Shown: positions 1,209 to 61,906 of the stretch, piece by piece | Layout of the letters: each line of letters opens with the position of its first letter | How positions within the stretch are numbered: the stretch's first letter is position 1 | Assembly: GCA_036339995.1 (NCBI GenBank) | Contig: JAYYZW010000049.1 | Coordinates: 7,927-71,926, forward strand | Direction: 5' to 3' | Source of the DNA: Pseudomonadota bacterium | Lineage (GTDB): Bacteria > Pseudomonadota > Gammaproteobacteria > Ga0077536 | Length of the DNA: 64,000 bases | The notes under the pieces: model-generated | Told to the model about the DNA's origin: nothing | Seen by the model: the letters and a program-made list of their open reading frames with translations, nothing else | The model's database searches: none | Position numbers and translations under genes: made by a program

Positions 1209-1311
1209 CTTCAATCCATTAGCACCCATCTCGAAATTATCTACGTGTGCGCCGGGAGCTCATCGCGCAGTTCAAAGTGCGACGAGCTTGGCAAACCATG
1301 AGCTGAACGGG

Positions 1312-1488
1312 CGGCGAGCAACGCCGAAATGCGCGTAAATAGCCTTAGGCCTCGGGTTGTGTCATGAAAACGCACTGGCTTTGCTGCGGCGCTTGAACAC
1401 AGCGGAACGCCGCCCTGTCGACTCGGTCGCACCCTTACGTTTTCAGGGCACAATCTACATGCGGATGATTTTGAGATAGGTTGTCGTA
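1312..1488 (+). repeat. About 175 bp leader repeat (copy A) ending in TTTTGAGATAGGTT 7 nt before the mnmE ATG; homologous to 19389..19566
   Basis: By-eye alignment with the purH upstream region gives about 70% identity across the full length. Shared blocks are CAAyGCCGAAATGCG…GCGCTTGAACA…TGACTCGG…CAGGGCACrATCTAyATGCG…TTTTGmrATAGGTT. Confidence 0.55.
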
Positions 1489-3786: not shown

Positions 3787-4820
3787 ATGCGAGTGGCGCA
3801 GATCATGCTGGCAAAACGTTTCGGCGGCGCCGAGCGTTCTTTCGTTGATTTGACCATCGGACTCGCCGAACGTGGTTTGCAGGTCCTTGCGATCGGCGAT
3901 CCGCGCGGTGAGGCGCTGGAAAAACTACCGCGTCATTCAAACATTCAATGCGCGCGGGTTAAGTGTCGTGGTGTGTGGGATTGGCTTTGCAGTTTTCGAA
4001 TCAAGCAGCACTTGGTGCGCTTCGCTCCCGACCTCGTGCAAACGCATCTTGCGCGGGCTGCACACCTCGGGGGACGTGCCGCACACGGCGCGGCGCCGAC
4101 ACTGGCGAAAACGCACAATTTGGTGAATCTCAATTATTACCGTTACATCGATAGCTTGGTTGCGACCACGAACGAACAGCAGACCTACCTTCTCGATAAC
4201 GGGATCCCGGCGACAGCAATCGTGAAAATACCCAATTTCTGTGCGTTCGAACCGACCGCTGGCGCCACGCGCGCGGCGGGCGAAGACCTCGTGATCAAGT
4301 CGCTCGGACGTTTCGTCGAAAAAAAGGCTTTGATCTTTTGTTGCACGCCTTCGCGCGCGTTCTTATCAGCGGTGTCGATGCGCGGCTCGAGATCGCGGGC
4401 GCCGGGCCGCAGGGACGCGTCCTGGGAGCACTTGCCGGCGAACTCGAAATACTCGACAAAGTGAGCTTCCCCGGATGGACCGATGATGTGCAGAGTTTTC
4501 TTTCAAACGCGCATGTCTTCGTTCTGCCGTCACGGGAAGAACCATTCGGTATTGCGCTGCTCGAAGCGATGGCCTGCGGCGTACCCATTGTATCCTCGCG
4601 TACGAGCGGTCCGCTCGAAGTGTTGAATGAGGAAACGGCGCTGCTCGTCGATCGCGATGACCCGGAAAGCCTCGCCCGCGCAATCACCGACATCGCGCGT
4701 GATCCCCACGCAGCGGCCAAGCGGGCACGCGAAGCACAACGGCGATTCAGCGAGAATTTCGATGCGAAGACGGTTATCGACCGCTACCTTGAGGTCTACG
4801 AAGATCTCACAAAGCAGTAA
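3787..4820 (+). pseudogene. GT4-family (GT1 fold) glycosyltransferase interrupted by a -1 frameshift at a poly(A)7 tract (4319..4325)
   Basis: ORF 3787..4464 encodes the N-terminal GT-B domain (…GRFVEKK). ORF 4338..4820 in another frame encodes the C-terminal domain (…EEPFGIALLEAMACGVPIV…). Adding one A at the A7 run gives a continuous …RFVEKKGFDLLLHAFARV… reading of about 340 aa. Confidence 0.7.
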
Positions 4821-5885: not shown

Positions 5886-6701
5886 ATGCTAGATCCACGA
5901 CGGTTGATCGCCTGTTTTCGACTGCATACCTGGCGTAGAAACCTGGGTAACTTCGCGTTGATCAAGCATCGGCATAACGTCGGACATCTGCTGAGCATGC
6001 ATCAATCCGGTACTCATTGGCTCAAGTTCATGTTGGCCAATGCATTATCTCATCAATACGGGACGCCGCCGCCGGCCTACAATCATGCCAATGACATCAT
6101 CGGCGGACCGAAGGATCTACCGCGCTATCCGCAGCTGCCCCGGATCATCGCCAGTCATACGATCGCGCACCCGTTGCTCAGATTCGAAAGCGTTCACGGA
6201 CTCTGCAAGCTGCCGCGCTACGTCGTTCTGGTGCGCGACATCAGGGCGGCCCTGGCGTCGAACTACACTAAGTGGCGGAGCTCTTATGGGGTGTCATTTT
6301 CGGAATATCTCGCGGGGGATCCGCGCGGTCGCAAGTTTAACAGCGACCTGTGGTGGTCGCTACGTTTCCTCAATAGCTGGGGCGAAGTCCTGGAAAATGT
6401 ACCGAGGCGGGTGACCGTGATTCACTACGAAACGCTGGAAAACGACGCGTCGGGCGAACTCGAACGCATCGCGCACGACCTCGATCTAGACCTCTCGCAG
6501 GCGGCCATTGAACATGGTGTCGCGGTCTCGACTCGCCCGTTGATGCAGGAAAAAGACGATCCGCGGCGCCCGTCGGGCGCCGTACGATCGGCAACGTCCG
6601 ATCCACACGCATTTTTCGATGCGGCGGGAAAAGCGTTCCTCGTCGAGGTCTTAACCGCATGTCTGCGCCATGATTTCGGCTACGATTACAGCCGTTGGTG
6701 A
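5886..6701 (+). CDS. Sulfotransferase-family protein (putative glycan or LPS sulfotransferase)
   Basis: 271 aa. It has a 5'-PSB-like motif HQSGTHWL (compare PKSGTTW), a 3'-PB-like motif VLVRDIRAALASNY (R-D…S) and an IHYETLEND stretch (compare YEDL). It is embedded in the glycosyltransferase cluster. Confidence 0.5.
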   Translation: MLDPRRLIACFRLHTWRRNLGNFALIKHRHNVGHLLSMHQSGTHWLKFMLANALSHQYGTPPPAYNHANDIIGGPKDLPRYPQLPRIIASHTIAHPLLRFESVHGLCKLPRYVVLVRDIRAALASNYTKWRSSYGVSFSEYLAGDPRGRKFNSDLWWSLRFLNSWGEVLENVPRRVTVIHYETLENDASGELERIAHDLDLDLSQAAIEHGVAVSTRPLMQEKDDPRRPSGAVRSATSDPHAFFDAAGKAFLVEVLTACLRHDFGYDYSRW

Positions 6702-7846
6702 TGCAGCAAGCGCTGGTAGACGGACAGCGTGGCGTCCTGCATCCGCGCGAGCGTATAAGGATGCTCCCGCGGTAACGGCGTCCGGGATTTAAGGAGTTGC
6801 GCCGTGAGGTCGGCGGCCGCCGCCACGTCGCCCACGTCTACAAGCCCCGGCGGAAAAATACGCTTTAGAATTTCCGCAGTTCCGCCGTGTTCGAAACCGA
6901 TCACCGGCGTGCCCAGGCTCAAAGCCTCCACGGTCGTGCGTCCGAAGGCTTCCGGCTCCCGTGTCAGTGAATAGGCGATGTCGGATATCGCGAGGATCTC
7001 GCGGAGATCGCGCCGGTGCCCCAGGAAAGTGATATCCCGTGCTAGCCCCAATCGCTGGACGGTGTGTTTGAGTTCATCTTCGAAAGATCCCCGGCCTCGA
7101 TGTGCAGCTCCCGCGAGGAGGCCATGCACGTGTGCATCGCGGCGGCGTAATCGCGCGATCATTTCGATGAAGTCGAGCTGGCCCTTCCAGCGGGTGAGGC
7201 GCGCCGGCAAGGTTAACAGGGCTTTTCCGGCCAGGGCCGGGTATTCGGCGTGCCAGGCCGACATCCATTCCGTCGGCGGCGTGTATTCTAGATGGAATTT
7301 ATTTCGGTCGACCCCACGGGGGATCACCTCGATACGGCGAGCCTCGATCCTCGGGTACGAGTCGACGATGTAACGCTTGATGAATTCTGATATCGCGATC
7401 ACGATTTCTCCGGTGACCATGATGCGGCTGTAAGGATTAACGCTGTAAGGACCGTGAACAGTCGTCACCCAGGCCGGCCGCGCGACGTCGCTCAGGCGCT
7501 TGCAGGCCAGATGTCCCAGCCACGCGGGAAGCCGGGAACGTGCATGCACGATGTCGACATGCCGTTCGACGATGAGCTTGCGTAGAGCGCGGACGTGTCG
7601 GAGGCTCCCGATCCGCTTCTCGCCGATCGCTAAGGGGATGTGCTCGGCACCGCAGCTCTCGAGTTCCTCGACCAGTCGGCCCGGCGCGCAGACGACCAGC
7701 GCGCGGTATCCAGCGCGGCATAGCGCGTCTGCGATCTCGATCGTGCCGCGCTCGACGCCGCCGACCTCGAGTTCGGGCAGTAGCTGCATGACGGTCAAGG
7801 GGTGCGCGATCAAGCCGAGCGTTTCCCGCCGCCGATCTCCGGCCAT
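6686..7846 (-). CDS. Glycosyltransferase family 4 (GT1 fold)
   Basis: 386 aa. The N-terminus is LLPELEVGGVERGTIEIADAL. The C-terminal EAFGRTTVEALSLGTPVIG motif is typical of GT4 enzymes. Confidence 0.8.
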   Translation of the reverse strand: MAGDRRRETLGLIAHPLTVMQLLPELEVGGVERGTIEIADALCRAGYRALVVCAPGRLVEELESCGAEHIPLAIGEKRIGSLRHVRALRKLIVERHVDIVHARSRLPAWLGHLACKRLSDVARPAWVTTVHGPYSVNPYSRIMVTGEIVIAISEFIKRYIVDSYPRIEARRIEVIPRGVDRNKFHLEYTPPTEWMSAWHAEYPALAGKALLTLPARLTRWKGQLDFIEMIARLRRRDAHVHGLLAGAAHRGRGSFEDELKHTVQRLGLARDITFLGHRRDLREILAISDIAYSLTREPEAFGRTTVEALSLGTPVIGFEHGGTAEILKRIFPPGLVDVGDVAAAADLTAQLLKSRTPLPREHPYTLARMQDATLSVYQRLLHHQRL

Positions 7847-14457: not shown

Positions 14458-14740
14458 TTAGAATTCATCAAAAAATATTTCGCGTCCGTAATTAATTTCA
14501 AGGTAAGTTCTAGTGTGCTGTCTCGGGCCAGCAAGCGGGCGATTTGAAATCTGTGTCGTAATTCGCAACGGTTAATTACTGGCCGTCCGAAAAAGGTAAC
14601 TTTCGCCAAGGCATGAAGACCAAAATGTCGTACGTGATCGTTATTGAATTCATGCCAAAGCGCTCTCGTGATGGCTTTGCGCTTTAGCGAGGAAATATTG
14701 ATGTTTATGGATGGACACTATTCAGACGAAGACACGCGGC

Positions 14741-17844: not shown

Positions 17845-18056
17845 TTGCGAGCGGTTCCTAGGAGGCCTTTCTCGACAAGCCCATTGTGGCTATCATCATT
17901 CCCTCGCGACGGAGGACCCCAGGCGAGCGCGCCTTCGGGAGCTATTTCGAGAATTTGCTGATCTCCCGGCCAGCGGCCTGCATTTCGTCCGCCGTAGCGC
18001 GACCTGCGGCGTAGTGAGCACGCACCGTGACTTATTCAGAGGCTTCTTAAGCGAAT

Positions 18057-19034: not shown

Positions 19035-19297
19035 GCGCCTCGCGTGCAAGCAATCGAAAAGCCGAACAGCCGCTGACCACGCTGGTCAAGCATTCGCTCG
19101 AACAGTATTTCGACGATCTGAACGGCCAGCCGGCGGCGGAACTCTATGAGCTTGTCGTTCGGCAGGTAGAGCAGCCCCTGGTCGAGATCGTCATGCGCGA
19201 GACGGGTGGAAATGTTTCCAAAGCAGCACGGGTTCTCGGAATAAATCGCGCAACGCTCCGCAAAAAGCTCCATAAGTACGGTTTAAATAACAAGTAG
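19031..19297 (+). CDS. fis: DNA-binding protein Fis
   Basis: 88 aa from the ATG at 19031. The C-terminal HTH is GNVSKAARVLGINRATLRKKLHKYGLN. This is the dusB-fis operon. Confidence 0.92.
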   Translation: MSASRASNRKAEQPLTTLVKHSLEQYFDDLNGQPAAELYELVVRQVEQPLVEIVMRETGGNVSKAARVLGINRATLRKKLHKYGLNNK

Positions 19298-19388
19298 AAC
19301 CACCCTCAGTATTATTCGCGGAGGCGTCGCCAGCAGTTTGCGCAGGGTATCAAGGCGCGAGGTACGTGGTTTAGCGATGCCAAATAAG

Positions 19389-19566
19389 CGACGTGCAATG
19401 CCGAAATGCGGAAAAATGACTGCCGGCCCTTGGGGTTGAAGCCTGAAAGCACGCTTGCTTTATACCAGCGCTTGAACATAGGGCGCCTCCGCGCTACTGA
19501 CTCGGCCTGGCAATCGCTCTTGCAGGGCACGATCTATATGCGAAAAATTTTGCAATAGGTTCTGGT
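19389..19566 (+). repeat. About 175 bp leader repeat (copy B) ending in TTTTGCAATAGGTT 7 nt before the purH ATG
   Basis: It is homologous to 1312..1488 (see that feature). Confidence 0.55.
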
Positions 19567-21141
19567 ATGCCAAATTCGGCAAAGGTCACGCGCGCGCTCA
19601 TCAGCGTATCCGACAAGACGGATCTCGAAGAACTGGGACGCGGTTTGAGCCGGCTCGGTATCCACATCCTGTCGACGGGAGGGTCCGCAAAAGCGCTTCG
19701 CAGCGCGGGCGTCGAAGTGACGGAGGTGTCCGAGCACACGGGCTTTCCCGAGATCATGGATGGCCGGGTCAAGACGCTTCACCCCAAAATACACGGCGGC
19801 ATTCTCGCGCGACGGGATGTCGACGAGGGAGTACTGGACGCGCATGGTATCGAATTGATAGACCTCGTTGTCGTTAATCTTTATCCCTTCGAAAAGACGG
19901 TCACGACGCCGGAATTCACCCACGAGGACGCGATCGAAAATATCGATATTGGAGGCCCGACTCTAATCCGCGCTGCCGCAAAAAATCATGCCTTCGTGAC
20001 CGTCGTATGTGATCCGGGCGACTACGCGCCCGTTTTAGGAGAGATCAACTCGGACGGTGCTGTGTCGGCCGAAACGCGCCAGCGGCTCGCGACCAAGGCA
20101 TTTCGACACACCTCCGATTACGACCATGCGATCAACGACTACCTGTCGTCGCATCGGGCGCCCAGGAAAGGGATGTTTTCCGATCGCTTGAGCGTGCGCT
20201 TCGCAAAAAAGCAGATGCTGAGATACGGCGAGAACCCGCATCAGCAAGCGGCGTTTTACGTCGAAAAAGACGCACCCCCCGGAACGCTTGCCGCAGCCGA
20301 GCAACTTCAGGGTAAAGAACTCTCATACAACAACATCGCCGATACGGACGCCGCGCTCGATTGCGTTCGATCGTTTCACGATGCTGCATGCTGTATCGTC
20401 AAGCACGCCAATCCCTGCGGCGTCGCCGAGGCGGCGGACATCGCCCTCGCCTACGAACAGGCGTACAAAACGGATCCAACGTCCGCTTTTGGTGGAATCA
20501 TTGCGTTCAACCGCCCGCTGAATGTCACCGTTGCGCAAGCGATCCTCGAGCGACAGTTCGTCGAAGTGATCGTAGCGCCAGCGATCGAAGACACGGCGCT
20601 TGCCATACTTGCCGCCAAGGAGAACATTCGGGTGCTGGCGGTCGGCGAATGGCCCAGCGAACTTTTGCAACAACTCGAGTACAAGAGGGTCATGGGCGGC
20701 CTTTTAGTACAGGATCGGGACGTTGCTGCGCAGGCGACGGGCACGGGTTCGCTCAAGCCGGTCACGCGCAGAGCACCGTCGGCGGACGAATTGCGCGACC
20801 TCATCTTCGCCTGGCGCGTGGTCGCTTGTGTGAAATCGAACGCCATCGTTTATGCTCGCGCTCGGGCCACGATAGGGATCGGCGCGGGCCAGATGAGCCG
20901 CGTCTACAGCGCCCGCATCGCCGCGATCAAGGCAGCGGACGAACGACTCGAAGTCGCCGGGGCGGTGATGGCATCCGACGCGTTCTTTCCGTTCAGAGAC
21001 GGCATCGATTCCGCCGCCGAGGCGGGCATCCGCGCCGTCGTGCAACCCGGCGGCTCGATGCGCGACGACGAGGTTATCGCGGCCGCCGACGAGCACGACA
21101 TCGCCATGGTATTCACTGGCGAGCGCCACTTCAGGCATTGA
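19567..21141 (+). CDS. purH: Bifunctional AICAR transformylase / IMP cyclohydrolase
   Basis: 524 aa. It has an MGS-like N-terminal domain ([18 protein letters not shown]…) and an AICARFT C-terminal domain. Confidence 0.95.
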
Positions 21142-40712: not shown

Positions 40713-40818
40713 AACACACGGCCGCGGCTGTTCTTGCAATCCGGCCTTTAGCGCACTGCCACACCGCACCATCGAGCCATCTTGTAAGAAACGCTTTTGA
40801 GATAGGCGCGCTAGGGCG

Positions 40819-41418
40819 ATGACGGTCGTAGGTGAAGACAGTCTCTATCTCGCCTCGCGCTCGCCGCGTCGCGCCGATCTGCTGCGCTTACTAGGCGTGA
40901 AATTCCGGGTGGTGGAGGTCGACGTCGATGAGTCGCCCATAGCGCAGGAATCACCGGAAAACCACGTCCGCCGTACGGCGCTTGCGAAGGCGGCCGCCGG
41001 ACGTGCCACGCTTCGTGAAGACGCCGTCGTTGTGGCCGCCGACACAGCGGTCAGCGTCGACGGACTGATCTTCGGCAAGCCGCGGGATCGCTCGCACGCA
41101 ACCGAGATGCTGAACGTCCTGTCGGGGCGCTGGCATGAGGTATTGACCGCCGTCGTCCTTGGCGGCGAAACGGATACCTTGTGCCGTGTTGTTCGCTCGA
41201 GGGTGCAATTCACGATTCTCGATGCGCAAACGATCGAAGCCTACTGGCAAACCGGGGAACCTGCCGACAAGGCGGGCGCCTATGGCATTCAGGGCATCGG
41301 CGGCGCGCTGGTAAAGCAGATCGACGGCAGCTATTCGGCGGTGGTCGGTTTGCCGCTGTATGAGACCTCGACGCTGCTGGATGAGGCCGGTATCGGGCAC
41401 GCCTTGAGCGGCACATGA
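40819..41418 (+). CDS. maf: Maf-family nucleoside triphosphate pyrophosphatase
   Basis: 199 aa. It has the …LYLASRSPRRADLLRLLGV… motif and the Maf C-terminal …AYGIQGIGGALV… motif. Confidence 0.85.
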   Translation: MTVVGEDSLYLASRSPRRADLLRLLGVKFRVVEVDVDESPIAQESPENHVRRTALAKAAAGRATLREDAVVVAADTAVSVDGLIFGKPRDRSHATEMLNVLSGRWHEVLTAVVLGGETDTLCRVVRSRVQFTILDAQTIEAYWQTGEPADKAGAYGIQGIGGALVKQIDGSYSAVVGLPLYETSTLLDEAGIGHALSGT

Positions 41419-41470
41419 GAATGACCGGCACACACGCGGATAAGTTTGAGATAGGTTCTAGTCTCCATCC

Positions 41471-51731: not shown

Positions 51732-51956
51732 GCTGCCGGGACCGCCGTCACGGCAAAGCCCTTGTAATTGCCAGTTCAAGCGGCCATATATTAAATGTCC
51801 ATCCATAAACGTCATTATTTATTTCGCAAAGGAGCAACGACACCGAGAAAGCGATCCATATGATTTTAATAACAATCACTTATCGCTTTGCGTCTTGGCG
51901 AAAGTTAATCTGTGCAGTTGGACACTATTTAAAACTTATTTCAAAACAATTCGCGC

Positions 51957-56108: not shown

Positions 56109-56136
56109 AGGCCGACAGCGGCTATTGGATTAAGGA

Positions 56137-56288
56137 CCTCTGAATAAGTCATGGCGCGTCTGAATTGTTCATGCGCAGTGCAGATCAAGGCACGAAGCGC
56201 AGGTAATAGCGGGGACTATTGGCAAGGTTCGTAACGTAAGGCTCCGCGATATCATGGGCAAGGCAGATGTGCCATGACTTATTCAGAG
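56137..56288. mobile_element. MITE-like repeat, copy 1 (152 bp; terminal inverted repeats CCTCTGAATAAGTCATGG / CCATGACTTATTCAGAG), ruvB-ybgC intergenic
   Basis: It has perfect 17-bp terminal inverted repeats. The body is about 90% identical to the reverse complement of 61730..61883. It ends 9 nt before the ybgC ATG. Confidence 0.75.
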
Positions 56289-56297
56289 ATTTCTTAA

Positions 56298-56711
56298 ATG
56301 ATAAGCGAACGCTTCGTGTGGCGGGTACGCGTCTATTACGAGGATACGGATGCAGCGGGAATCGTTTATCACGCGAACTATCTCCGCTTCATGGAGCGCG
56401 CGCGGACCGAGTGGCTGCGAGCGTTGGGATTTGAGCAGGATGCCTTGCTCGGCGATTTCAATATCGTGTTCGTCGTCAATCAAACCGATGTGAAATACGT
56501 TCGGGCGGCGCGGTTTAACGAGGAACTTACGGTCACAACCGGACTCGAACGATTGCGCGGAGCAAGCCTGGAGTTCGTGCAGATCATCGAGAACTGCGGT
56601 CAACGGTGCGTTTGTACGGCCAACAACCGCGTTGCCTGCGTCGATGCAAGCTCCTTCAAACCACGGCGAATTCCGGGGCAGATGTTGAGGGTGTTTCAAA
56701 GTGCAAACTGA
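56298..56711 (+). CDS. ybgC: Tol-Pal-associated acyl-CoA thioesterase YbgC
   Basis: 137 aa with a 4HBT hot-dog fold. The translation reads VRVYYEDTDAAGIVYHANYLRFMERARTEWL. Confidence 0.85.
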   Translation: MISERFVWRVRVYYEDTDAAGIVYHANYLRFMERARTEWLRALGFEQDALLGDFNIVFVVNQTDVKYVRAARFNEELTVTTGLERLRGASLEFVQIIENCGQRCVCTANNRVACVDASSFKPRRIPGQMLRVFQSAN

Positions 56712-60645: not shown

Positions 60646-61725
60646 GTGAACTTGGCAATGCTTGGAATGTTTCGAAGGACTCGATCGCAGACACCTCGCA
60701 ACAAGCTTGCCTCGTTGACGGTGATGCTGGGGCTCTTGGCGTGCCTGCCGGCAACCGTGAACGGTCAGACCGAGGGGGGCCTCGCTGGTCGAATGACGCG
60801 CCTGGAACGTGCGCTCGATAGCAAGGGGCTGGTCGAACTGCTCCAACAGCTCGAATTGTTGCAAGCCGAACTCCGGCAACTACGCGGCGAGATGGAAAAT
60901 CAGGTATTCGCTCTAGAGATGGTGCGGAAGAGCCAGCGCGAGGCGTACGCCGACGTCGACCAGCGGCTGGGGCTGATCGAGAATGGCGGGGTCGCCGCCA
61001 CCGTGGCTGCTGTCCCCGGCGTCGCAACCGATCCACCCCTGCCGACTCTTACAACGCCCGCCGGTGGTGTTGTCGCGGGGACCCCTTCCGCTCAGGCTAT
61101 CGCGGTCGATATTCGACCGCCCGCTGTAGCCGCGCTCGCCGTTGGGGCAGATCTGATCGAAGCGGGTGCAGTTGTGCCGGGCGATACGGATGAACTACCA
61201 CTGGACGGAGCGGCGGCAACAGCCGACGTTCCCAGTGATATTGCATTGATGGATTCGACACAACCGCCGGCGAGTACCACGCCGATTATTGACTGGCCCA
61301 CGCCGTCGATCCTGCCGCCGACACCAACGGTTGATAGCGCGGAGTCCAAAGCAGCGTACAGGGGGGCCTTCACCATGTTGAAAGCGGGCCAGTACGACGA
61401 ATGCATCGCGTCGTTCAACAATTTCCTGCGGCAGTATCCATCCAGCCAGTATGCGGATAACGCTCAGTACTGGCTGGGCGAAGCTTATTACGTCATGGGT
61501 CAGTTCGAACCCGCGATCGATCAATACCAAAAACTGGTCAACGGCTACCCTGATAGCAAGAAGCAATCGCACGCGATGCTCAAGATCGCTTACAGCTATC
61601 ACAAACTCGCACTGGCCGAGCAGGCGGTTGGTGTTCTGACTGAACTGAAAAATCGCTTTCCGGGCTCTGCCGCGGCACGCTTCGCCGACGAGCGTTTGAG
61701 GCGAATACGAGCGGAGTCACCCTAA
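60646..61725 (+). CDS. cpoB: Cell-division coordinator CpoB (YbgF) with extended Pro/Thr/Ala-rich linker
   Basis: 359 aa. It has a signal peptide, an N-terminal coiled coil (LQAELRQLRGEMENQ) and C-terminal TPR repeats (…YWLGEAYY…). This is the last gene of the tol-pal cluster. Confidence 0.8.
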   Translation: MNLAMLGMFRRTRSQTPRNKLASLTVMLGLLACLPATVNGQTEGGLAGRMTRLERALDSKGLVELLQQLELLQAELRQLRGEMENQVFALEMVRKSQREAYADVDQRLGLIENGGVAATVAAVPGVATDPPLPTLTTPAGGVVAGTPSAQAIAVDIRPPAVAALAVGADLIEAGAVVPGDTDELPLDGAAATADVPSDIALMDSTQPPASTTPIIDWPTPSILPPTPTVDSAESKAAYRGAFTMLKAGQYDECIASFNNFLRQYPSSQYADNAQYWLGEAYYVMGQFEPAIDQYQKLVNGYPDSKKQSHAMLKIAYSYHKLALAEQAVGVLTELKNRFPGSAAARFADERLRRIRAESP

Positions 61726-61729
61726 GGAA

Positions 61730-61883
61730 CCTCTGAAAAAGTCATGGCACATCTGCCTTGCCTATGAAATTGCGGAGCCTTACGTTACGAACCTTGCCAA
61801 TAGTCCCCGCTATAGTCTGCGATTCGTGCCTTGATCTGCGCGATTTCATGAACAATTCAGACGCACCATGACTTATTCAGAGG
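61730..61883. mobile_element. MITE-like repeat, copy 2 (154 bp), inverted relative to copy 1, cpoB-queE intergenic
   Basis: It starts 5 nt after the cpoB stop and ends 23 nt before the queE ATG. Its terminal inverted repeats are CCTCTGAAAAAGTCATGG / CCATGACTTATTCAGAGG. The reverse complement aligns with 56137..56288 with about 15 differences. Confidence 0.75.
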
Positions 61884-61906
61884 TTCCCTAAACGCCTTCT
61901 CCTTTC

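Follow-up and report, generated by a model that had tools for sequence, protein, structure and literature searches.

Look-alike spacers upstream of mnmE and purH as probable relics of a TA-flanked miniature transposon in an uncultured gammaproteobacterium

Background

Why should two genes of one genome, mnmE and purH, be preceded by spacers that resemble each other up to the last few bases before the start codon? Both lie in a 64,000-nucleotide stretch of a gammaproteobacterial contig (JAYYZW010000049.1), hereafter the window, and an initial annotation made from the letters alone offered two explanations: an inserted cassette with a promoter and a translation-initiation site, or a structured RNA leader common to two folate-linked functions. 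Using sequence profiles, alignments and scans of other genomes we conclude that a non-autonomous DNA transposon, a MITE of 262-272 bp, very probably gave rise to both spacers, which would be ancient, decayed copies no longer able to move. This removes a false riboswitch or leader candidate and illustrates that transposon ends can pass for near-identical "leaders" when they lie immediately ahead of start codons.

Extent of the similarity and the recurrent box

Our comparisons upheld the gene names given to this region (MnmE, Fis, Dus, PurH and Maf). The yidC gene ends at 1208 and the mnmE ATG lies at 1489, leaving a spacer of 280 nt, while fis ends at 19297 and the purH ATG lies at 19567, leaving 269 nt. 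The similarity of about 70% noticed at first was borne out: pairwise alignment of 1311-1488 with 19388-19567 gives 119 identical columns out of 180 (66%, or 68% ungapped), and blastn within the window recovers these segments at 67.8% identity over 180 nt (E = 8e-12). Its limits, set at 1312-1488 and 19389-19566 and described as whole-length, proved too short; the segments do align, but a family profile, itself built with both window copies included, extends the homology to ~265 bp, nearly the whole of both spacers (1220-1485 and 19295-19564). A blast search started from the copy of a relative matched the window at 1220-1482 with 77.6% identity and at 19305-19563 with 70.1%.

Near the downstream end of each spacer is the recurrent box TTTTGAGATAGGTT, present exactly at 1469-1482 in the mnmE spacer and, with two mismatches, as the variant TTTTGCAATAGGTT at 19548-19561 in the purH spacer; it is seen again at 40795-40808 (two mismatches) and at 41444-41457 (one mismatch). 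When up to three mismatches are allowed the window contains 7 matches against 2.25 expected, and none of 100 shuffles reached 7, in agreement with the claim that the box recurs beyond chance. It had been placed 7-8 nt before the start codons, whereas the actual distances are 6 nt for mnmE and 5 nt for purH. The copy reported 12 nt before the maf ATG is indeed there, as a 12-nt exact match at 40795-40806 (ATG at 40819), and the orphan box between maf and hppA is likewise present, but belongs to a match of 31-37 nt rather than to a 14-mer.

A probable transposon copy in each spacer

The family to which we assign both spacers (family 1) has terminal inverted repeats of 27-32 bp with the consensus end ...GCGGATAATTTTGAGATAGGTTC, flanked by a TA target-site duplication; read as a bounding pair, its termini are GAACCTATCTCAAAATTATCC ... 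GGATAATTTTGAGATAGGTTC. The box is the outer part of this terminal inverted repeat, which is presumably the transposase-binding end. The copy in the yidC-mnmE spacer (1222..1483, plus strand, 262 bp) is decayed: its left repeat (~1222-1251) has mismatches to the consensus at 5 of 22 positions, and its right repeat (~1454-1483), which holds the box at 1469-1482, at only 1 of 22. The left TA is intact at 1220-1221, and the right one has decayed to TC (1484-1485). The copy in the fis-purH spacer (19297..19562, plus strand, 266 bp) is also decayed and begins within the preceding gene, with G19297 completing the fis stop codon TAG (19295-19297), the TA of which is the left target duplication. Its right repeat holds the box at 19548-19561 and is followed by a TA decayed to TG (19563-19564); here the start-proximal repeat has 4 mismatches in 22 and the distal one, as read from the alignment, about 6. 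The repeat-finding tool left the distal repeats of the window copies undetected, as they are too decayed, and their identity therefore rests on homology to intact copies elsewhere.

Two smaller pieces of this family were found in the window, the 64 kb of the source genome that the analysis covered. The orphan between maf and hppA is a truncated, inverted solo end of the 'left-end' type (41425..41458, minus strand; nhmmer E = 4.8e-07), with its TA at 41459-41460 within a CTAG, in a convergent spacer with no downstream gene; it was also recovered as repeat family D9 (31-nt match at 41432-41462; 31-37 nt over 41425-41461 when all comparisons are considered). The 12 nt upstream of maf reproduce the core of the terminal repeat exactly (TTTTGAGATAGG, 40795..40806, plus strand), with a CTAG 4 nt on. 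They are probably the relic of another end, a weaker assignment given that only 12 nt match; by our own arithmetic, a 12-mer would recur by chance in 64 kb, both strands counted, with a probability of ~0.008.

The element is without coding capacity: its sole recurrent internal ATG opens reading frames of 5-53 codons, the frames shifting among copies. A conserved small ORF or uORF beginning at the invariant GAAATGC was considered and rejected on account of these variable lengths and the frameshifts between copies. The purH copy does contain a 50-codon ORF (19406-19558) running from the conserved GAAATGC to a TAG in the repeat, 8 nt before the purH ATG. Its geometry would permit translational coupling, but other copies do not have it and it is probably fortuitous.

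A dispersed family in other genomes

Scanning the GTDB species genomes with the exact 20-mer GGATAATTTTGAGATAGGTT recovered 22 loci, with 11 in the gammaproteobacterial MAG CAXXLL01, 4 in CBDCJB01 and 3 each in DASSRV01 and CBDDRH01; 2 further matches lay in contigs labelled Bacteroidota, and a longer terminus pattern added 7 metagenome loci. At six loci the 20-mer occurs as an inverted pair, with a spacing of ~263 bp at four, 339 bp at L009 and 48 bp at L011. BLAST, profile searches and alignments together showed that the family is spread over several MAGs of uncultured gammaproteobacteria, where more than 20 loci carry it in intact, deleted, back-to-back or solo form. Full-length copies measure 262-272 bp (L006, L013, L017, L018, L025 and L043; the intact one in L006 spans 6592-6857); internally deleted or truncated forms (L014, L016/L040, L034 and L038), back-to-back repeat pairs (L011 and L022) and solo ends (L010, L019 and L023) were recognized as well. 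The terminal repeats are best preserved in L006, a 32-nt pair that is 100% complementary and 206 nt apart, and are 27-31 nt long in L001, L003, L013, L018, L025 and L043; in L001 and L003 a left CTAG-(A/C)ACCTATCTCAAAATTATCCGCGTGTG pairs with a right CACATGCGGATAATTTTGAGATAGGTT-CTAG. A further curiosity is a nested insert of ~77 nt in the family-1 copy of L009 (~4333-4430), a near-perfect palindrome (GGTCCCGGATTCCGCTACGCTCCATCC...GGATGGAGCGTAGCGGAATCCGGGGAC) which may be another tiny mobile or REP-like element.

Nearly all termini read ...GGTTC and then TA. The base beyond the TA varies and differs from side to side, so the duplication is the 2-bp TA itself: the mixed flanks CTAG, CTAA and CTAT (e.g. 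right CTAA with left TTAG) fit only this, and a 3- or 4-bp duplication of the IS5-type YTAR kind was rejected since beyond the TA the flanks of the two sides disagree. The exception is the L017 copy, which is flanked by AT/CATG. Genes whose start abuts a terminus code for a ferredoxin, ROK, SDR, GFO/IDH/MocA, LigT, Mtd (methylene-H4MPT dehydrogenase), DUF4124 and DUF494 proteins, and at 8 of 12 independent insertions the terminus, after its TA, ends within 5 nt of a start codon. Copies also lie between convergent or divergent genes, including spaces without a downstream gene. L014 was rejected as a purH orthologue, its adjoining gene being LigT-like.

Empty and filled sites in relatives

The history of both insertions can be read from relatives of the two genes. 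The 280-nt yidC-mnmE spacer is kept in relatives with 90% identical MnmE (L001 and L003), and the window copy is orthologous to those in L001/L008 and L003; a 68% MnmE relative (L002) has an empty site of 19 nt. On the other side, all contigs with an identical Fis protein (L026-L033) have the 269-nt spacer, and a 93% PurH relative (L034) retains an orthologous copy with the same CTGG scar, although this copy has lost its central ~100 bp, including the TTGAAC region, and kept the ATG-proximal repeat. In PurH relatives at 77-78% (L035, L036 and L037), fis and purH are 1 nt apart (AAATAG-G-ATG or AAATAG-C-ATG). Hence the expectation that the spacers would be conserved in relatives held for those at 90-93% protein identity but not at 68-78%, and both insertions are older than the split from the former. 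The L034 contig raises a separate point: fis is represented there by its final 13 nt (AAATAACAAATAG), and what precedes them (1-145, from the start of the contig) bears no relation to that gene, which suggests another insertion or an assembly break at the junction.

The clean empty sites also bear on the idea of an inserted cassette, which was right about the insertion only: what went in was a MITE, bounded by inverted repeats and a duplicated TA, and the initial annotation had not recognized it as such. The purH site in the window reads AAG-TA-[GAACC...GGTTC]-TG-G-T-ATG. This copy therefore entered the TA of the fis TAG stop when fis and purH were 1 nt apart; the first G of the element restored the stop codon, and the second TA later mutated to TG. 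The mnmE copy entered a yidC-mnmE spacer of ~20 nt. Because the insertions are at a TA in very short operon junctions, each copy takes up its entire spacer and comes to within a few bases of the ATG. The same geometry is seen in L010, where the nadE stop consists of TA plus the G of the MITE, and in L006, where the element sits in a 7-nt junction between ETF-QO and ferredoxin genes.

The mnmE copies of the window and L001 are 78.8% identical, as against 75.8% at four-fold degenerate sites of mnmE, and among near-identical strains the spacers are 97.0-99.3% identical, as against 97-100% at four-fold sites. The copies thus diverge at about the synonymous rate, which speaks against constraint on their interior.

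Possible consequences for the downstream genes

With such insertions in place, mnmE and purH would be expressed by read-through from yidC and fis, and the purine-rich end of the repeat, with an AGG ~7 nt before the ATG, could act as a makeshift ribosome-binding site. The anti-Shine-Dalgarno energies of the two repeat ends are -4.7 and -3.6 kcal/mol against a median of -2.9 for random 18-mers of the window; in the control, however, 45 crudely called gene starts (median -3.1) and 2000 random 18-mers (-2.9) show the same distribution, so the test has no power and a ribosome-binding role stays conjectural. If the element is co-transcribed, its terminal repeats should, by prediction, form a duplex that masks the stretch from -30 to -6 relative to the start codon, a pairing that is predicted to be largely lost in the decayed purH copy.

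The initial annotation had seen a promoter in a TTGAAC/TTGCAG arrangement. Using the criterion of -35 and -10 hexamers spaced 16-18 nt apart with at least 9 of 12 matches to the sigma-70 consensus, we found no site inside either window copy, nor in L006 or L017; the only match near the window copies straddles the left boundary of the purH copy, and the TTGAAC region is part of what L034 has lost. The proposed promoter is thus not supported for the window copies. In L025, an outward TTGAGG-16-GATAAT (9/12) does occur at the right end, directed toward the adjacent gene. Among orientable start-adjacent termini it is the 'right' end that faces the gene in 8 of 9, a bias that fits either selection against a terminating orientation or a weak outward promoter. 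The former possibility derives from the antisense strand of the element, which in L006 and L025 carries a terminator-like hairpin followed by a T run, and this hairpin would favor the orientation observed.

The alternative that survives best is that the MITE has been exapted as a portable expression module driving mnmE and purH, through an outward -10 hexamer (GATAAT) in the right terminal repeat, a weak subterminal -35 and the AGG of the repeat as ribosome-binding site. We consider this unlikely. In its support one may cite the L025 arrangement, the 8 of 9 orientation bias, the better preservation of the proximal repeat (1 against 5 mismatches in the mnmE copy and 4 against about 6 in the purH copy), the retention of that repeat by L034 after loss of the interior, and the putative promoters described for Correia elements (PMC2229807). 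Against this, the window copies, L006 and L017 are all without a consensus promoter in the element, and the hexamers of the window copies are weaker still (GATGAT/AAAAAT and TTTCAG/TTGCAG); the anti-Shine-Dalgarno energies are indistinguishable from those of random 18-mers; the whole element diverges at the synonymous rate; pairing of the terminal repeats is predicted to bury positions -30 to -6 upon co-transcription; and the orientation bias, based on nine termini, is explained equally well by the antisense terminator-like hairpin.

A broader version would have the family, along with a wider set of elements sharing its 21-bp terminus, adapted to the stop/start junctions of operons, and as a joint proposition it too seems doubtful to us. 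It would comprise (a) targeting of a TA that belongs either to a stop codon or to an AT-rich spacer ahead of a start, (b) rebuilding of the stop codon by the first base of the element, (c) tolerance of one orientation for read-through, the other strand being terminator-like, (d) provision of a repeat-borne ribosome-binding site and (e) of a weak outward promoter for the downstream gene, and (f) a functional RNA or DNA structure, e.g. a processing site, in a hairpin that covaries among the copies (described below).

A putative mobilizing transposase and the wider terminus set

A decayed, non-autonomous transposon, the reading we prefer, would have been mobilized in trans by a TA-duplicating DDE transposase. 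No autonomous element with a matching terminal repeat was found at the 29 loci recovered by exact 20-23-mer terminus scans; scanned viral contigs gave 0 matches to the terminus, and blastn of plasmids with the full L006 copy gave none. The ORFs beside solo ends code for BamD/YfiO, adenylate kinase, a molybdopterin oxidoreductase, GlnA, NadE and RNase D, with no transposase among them. With no partner element found, the transposase family is deduced from the TA duplication alone, which makes an IS630/Tc1-mariner type the most likely mobilizer. Elements of the IS427 group of IS5 end in GA/GG and duplicate 2-4 bp of a YTAR target, and a member of this type may be an alternative mobilizer.

One IS630-family insertion sequence (HTH and DDE_3 domains) was encountered at L003, positions 1566-2736, with the terminal repeat GTGTGGTGTCC..., inserted in the very TA/CTAG that flanks the mnmE copy on its left. 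Of two strains from the same metagenome sample, one has this insertion sequence and the other (L001) lacks it. Its terminal repeat, the only one of such an element compared, is unrelated to that of the MITE.

The 21-bp terminus GGATAATTTTGAGATAGGTTC followed by TA also bounds MITE-sized elements (134-272 bp) with unrelated interiors, in L005, L012, L015, L020, L021, L024, L039, L041, L044 and L004/L042, no transposase-bearing copy being seen. One of these is in a contig binned as Lewinella (Bacteroidota), which agrees with L042, a marine contig of 58 kb, along the ~80 nt that were compared. The occurrence of one terminus around unrelated interiors suggests a transposase family that recognizes this end.

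This same observation weighs against viewing the repeats as a REP/BIME- or ERIC-type family, or a protein-binding array, spread by recombination or gene conversion, since it points to end recognition by a transposase. Solo ends and back-to-back palindromic pairs (L010, L011, L019, L022 and L023) are reminiscent of such repeats, and the failure to find a transposase partner would be in keeping with them, but the insertions are precise and TA-flanked, their empty sites are clean, and the unit is of fixed length and bounded by long perfect terminal repeats. Simple segmental duplication of a spacer, which we grouped with this option, supplies no source for the TA duplication and terminal repeats at both sites, nor for more than 20 dispersed loci; taken together these alternatives are very improbable.

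Tests for a structured RNA leader

At gathering scores, Rfam models matched only a tRNA in the whole window, and a search for a known leader in both spacers at E <= 10 recovered only noise (e.g. Noro_CRE, an lncRNA). The two leaders fold no better than their dinucleotide shuffles (z = -0.19 and -1.22). RNAalifold consensus folding of 9 and 13 copies yields a repeat-repeat stem with internal hairpins, its covariation term being unfavorable (+1.27 and +1.35, respectively). Direct counting of double-sided changes gave 20 pairs against 5.9±1.8 in shuffles and 2-6 with slid partners. Most of the changes fall in the repeat stem, to which the divergent copy L041b contributes the larger part, and others in one internal hairpin (window 1357-1372 with 1438-1453; columns 143-160 with 233-251 of alignment A4). 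In that hairpin 8 of 14 pairs keep complementarity through double-sided changes across subfamilies, as in CTGAAAG/CTTTCAG versus CTCAAAG/CTTTGAG, or CGTGGGCGCGC/GCGCGCCCACG in L018.

The excess over controls indicates that some structural constraint, or a process that corrects palindromes, acts on the family. We attribute it to the mobile element itself, acting either on its DNA or on its RNA, and do not count it as evidence for a riboswitch, because symmetric change is expected from two-fold recognition by a transposase and from template-switch correction; the internal hairpin could reflect either selection or palindrome correction by template switching.

A structured cis-regulatory RNA that both folate-dependent genes would share, with a folate or a purine metabolite as ligand, can be set aside as scarcely credible: its conservation right up to the start codon of two genes of one-carbon-dependent pathways and its maintained hairpin potential (the 20 pairs against 5.9) are outweighed by the empty Rfam searches even at E <= 10, by folding no better than shuffles with an unfavorable RNAalifold term (+1.27 and +1.35), by the presence of the same MITE beside at least 10 functionally unrelated genes, sometimes downstream of them, by the fact that relatives with 68-78% protein identity lack it ahead of mnmE and purH, by loss of the interior in L034 and L014 and divergence at the neutral rate, and by the fact that covariation of inverted repeats is expected of transposon ends and palindromes that have no RNA function. 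The folate-linked leader of the initial annotation is thus refuted by its unrelated neighbor genes, the lack of an Rfam match, the folding scores and the synonymous-rate divergence. With the ZTP (pfl) and THF riboswitches the spacers share only a position upstream of purH or of a folate-linked gene; they differ in having no covariance-model match and no consistent gene association, and in being missing from the orthologous leaders of relatives.

Comparison with known elements

The closest parallels are miniature elements of other bacteria. RUP is a 107-bp element with 9-bp repeats that inserts at TA in a Gram-positive host and has IS630-Spn1 as its candidate partner (PMC2229807). By description, the element reported here is similar in that it is short, codes for nothing, lies between genes at a TA target and is bounded by terminal inverted repeats, and in being read as a non-autonomous derivative of a TA-duplicating insertion sequence; it differs in its size of ~265 bp, its repeats of 27-32 bp, its uncultured gammaproteobacterial hosts and in that its partner has not been found. 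Correia (NEMIS) elements also duplicate TA, have repeats of ~24-26 bp, exist as deletion size variants, lie beside genes with putative outward promoters, and form long repeat-repeat RNA stems when co-transcribed (PMC2229807). The likeness is a general one of TA duplication, repeat length and deletion variants, and Correia elements are 105-155 bp long, restricted to Neisseria and carry an IHF site; moreover, promoter activity and RNase III processing have been demonstrated or proposed for them, whereas any such activity in our family is conjectured. IS630/Tc1-mariner elements share the TA (often CTAG) target and the 2-bp duplication, and the L003 insertion sequence used a MITE-flanking TA, but its repeats (GTGTGGTGTCC...) are unrelated and a transposase gene is missing from the MITE. 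In the papers searched, the repeat strings occurred only as chance matches to primers, in no relevant context, and this family and the second one of the window, described below, are apparently undescribed, both in an uncultured gammaproteobacterial lineage.

Other repeats in the window

A second TA-flanked MITE family of ~165 bp, with the terminal repeat AGGAACCTCTGAATAAGTCATGG, shows the same behavior as family 1 and has two copies in the window that are 84% identical to each other, at 56133-56294 and, inverted, at 61725-61888. The first lies between ruvB and a gene for a ybgC-like thioesterase, ending as TA-A-ATG with the ATG at 56298; the second uses the TA of the cpoB/ybgF stop codon TAA (61723-61725) and precedes a radical-SAM (queE-like) gene. 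A remnant at 18001-18047 is a solo end 7 nt before the dusB ATG (18057), and CAXXLL01 contains five more full copies (L010, two in L016, L017 and L022).

MITEs thus occupy the junctions of housekeeping operons at fis-purH, yidC-mnmE, ruvB-ybgC and cpoB-queE, and the insertions exchange translational coupling for a 270-nt spacer. If studied in culture or in metatranscriptomes, these sites would be natural experiments on how mobile DNA between co-transcribed genes is tolerated or used. As repeats, the elements also explain contig breaks and odd long spacers in MAG annotation.

A third repeat, AT-rich and ~150 nt long, occurs at 14572-14720 and, inverted, at 51795-51946, the copies being ~70% identical. 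The former spans the start of a biotin carboxylase gene (ATG at 14711); the latter is intergenic, with a weak look-alike of the family-1 terminus at 51933-51954 (GCGAATTGTTTTGAAATAAGTT followed by TTAA).
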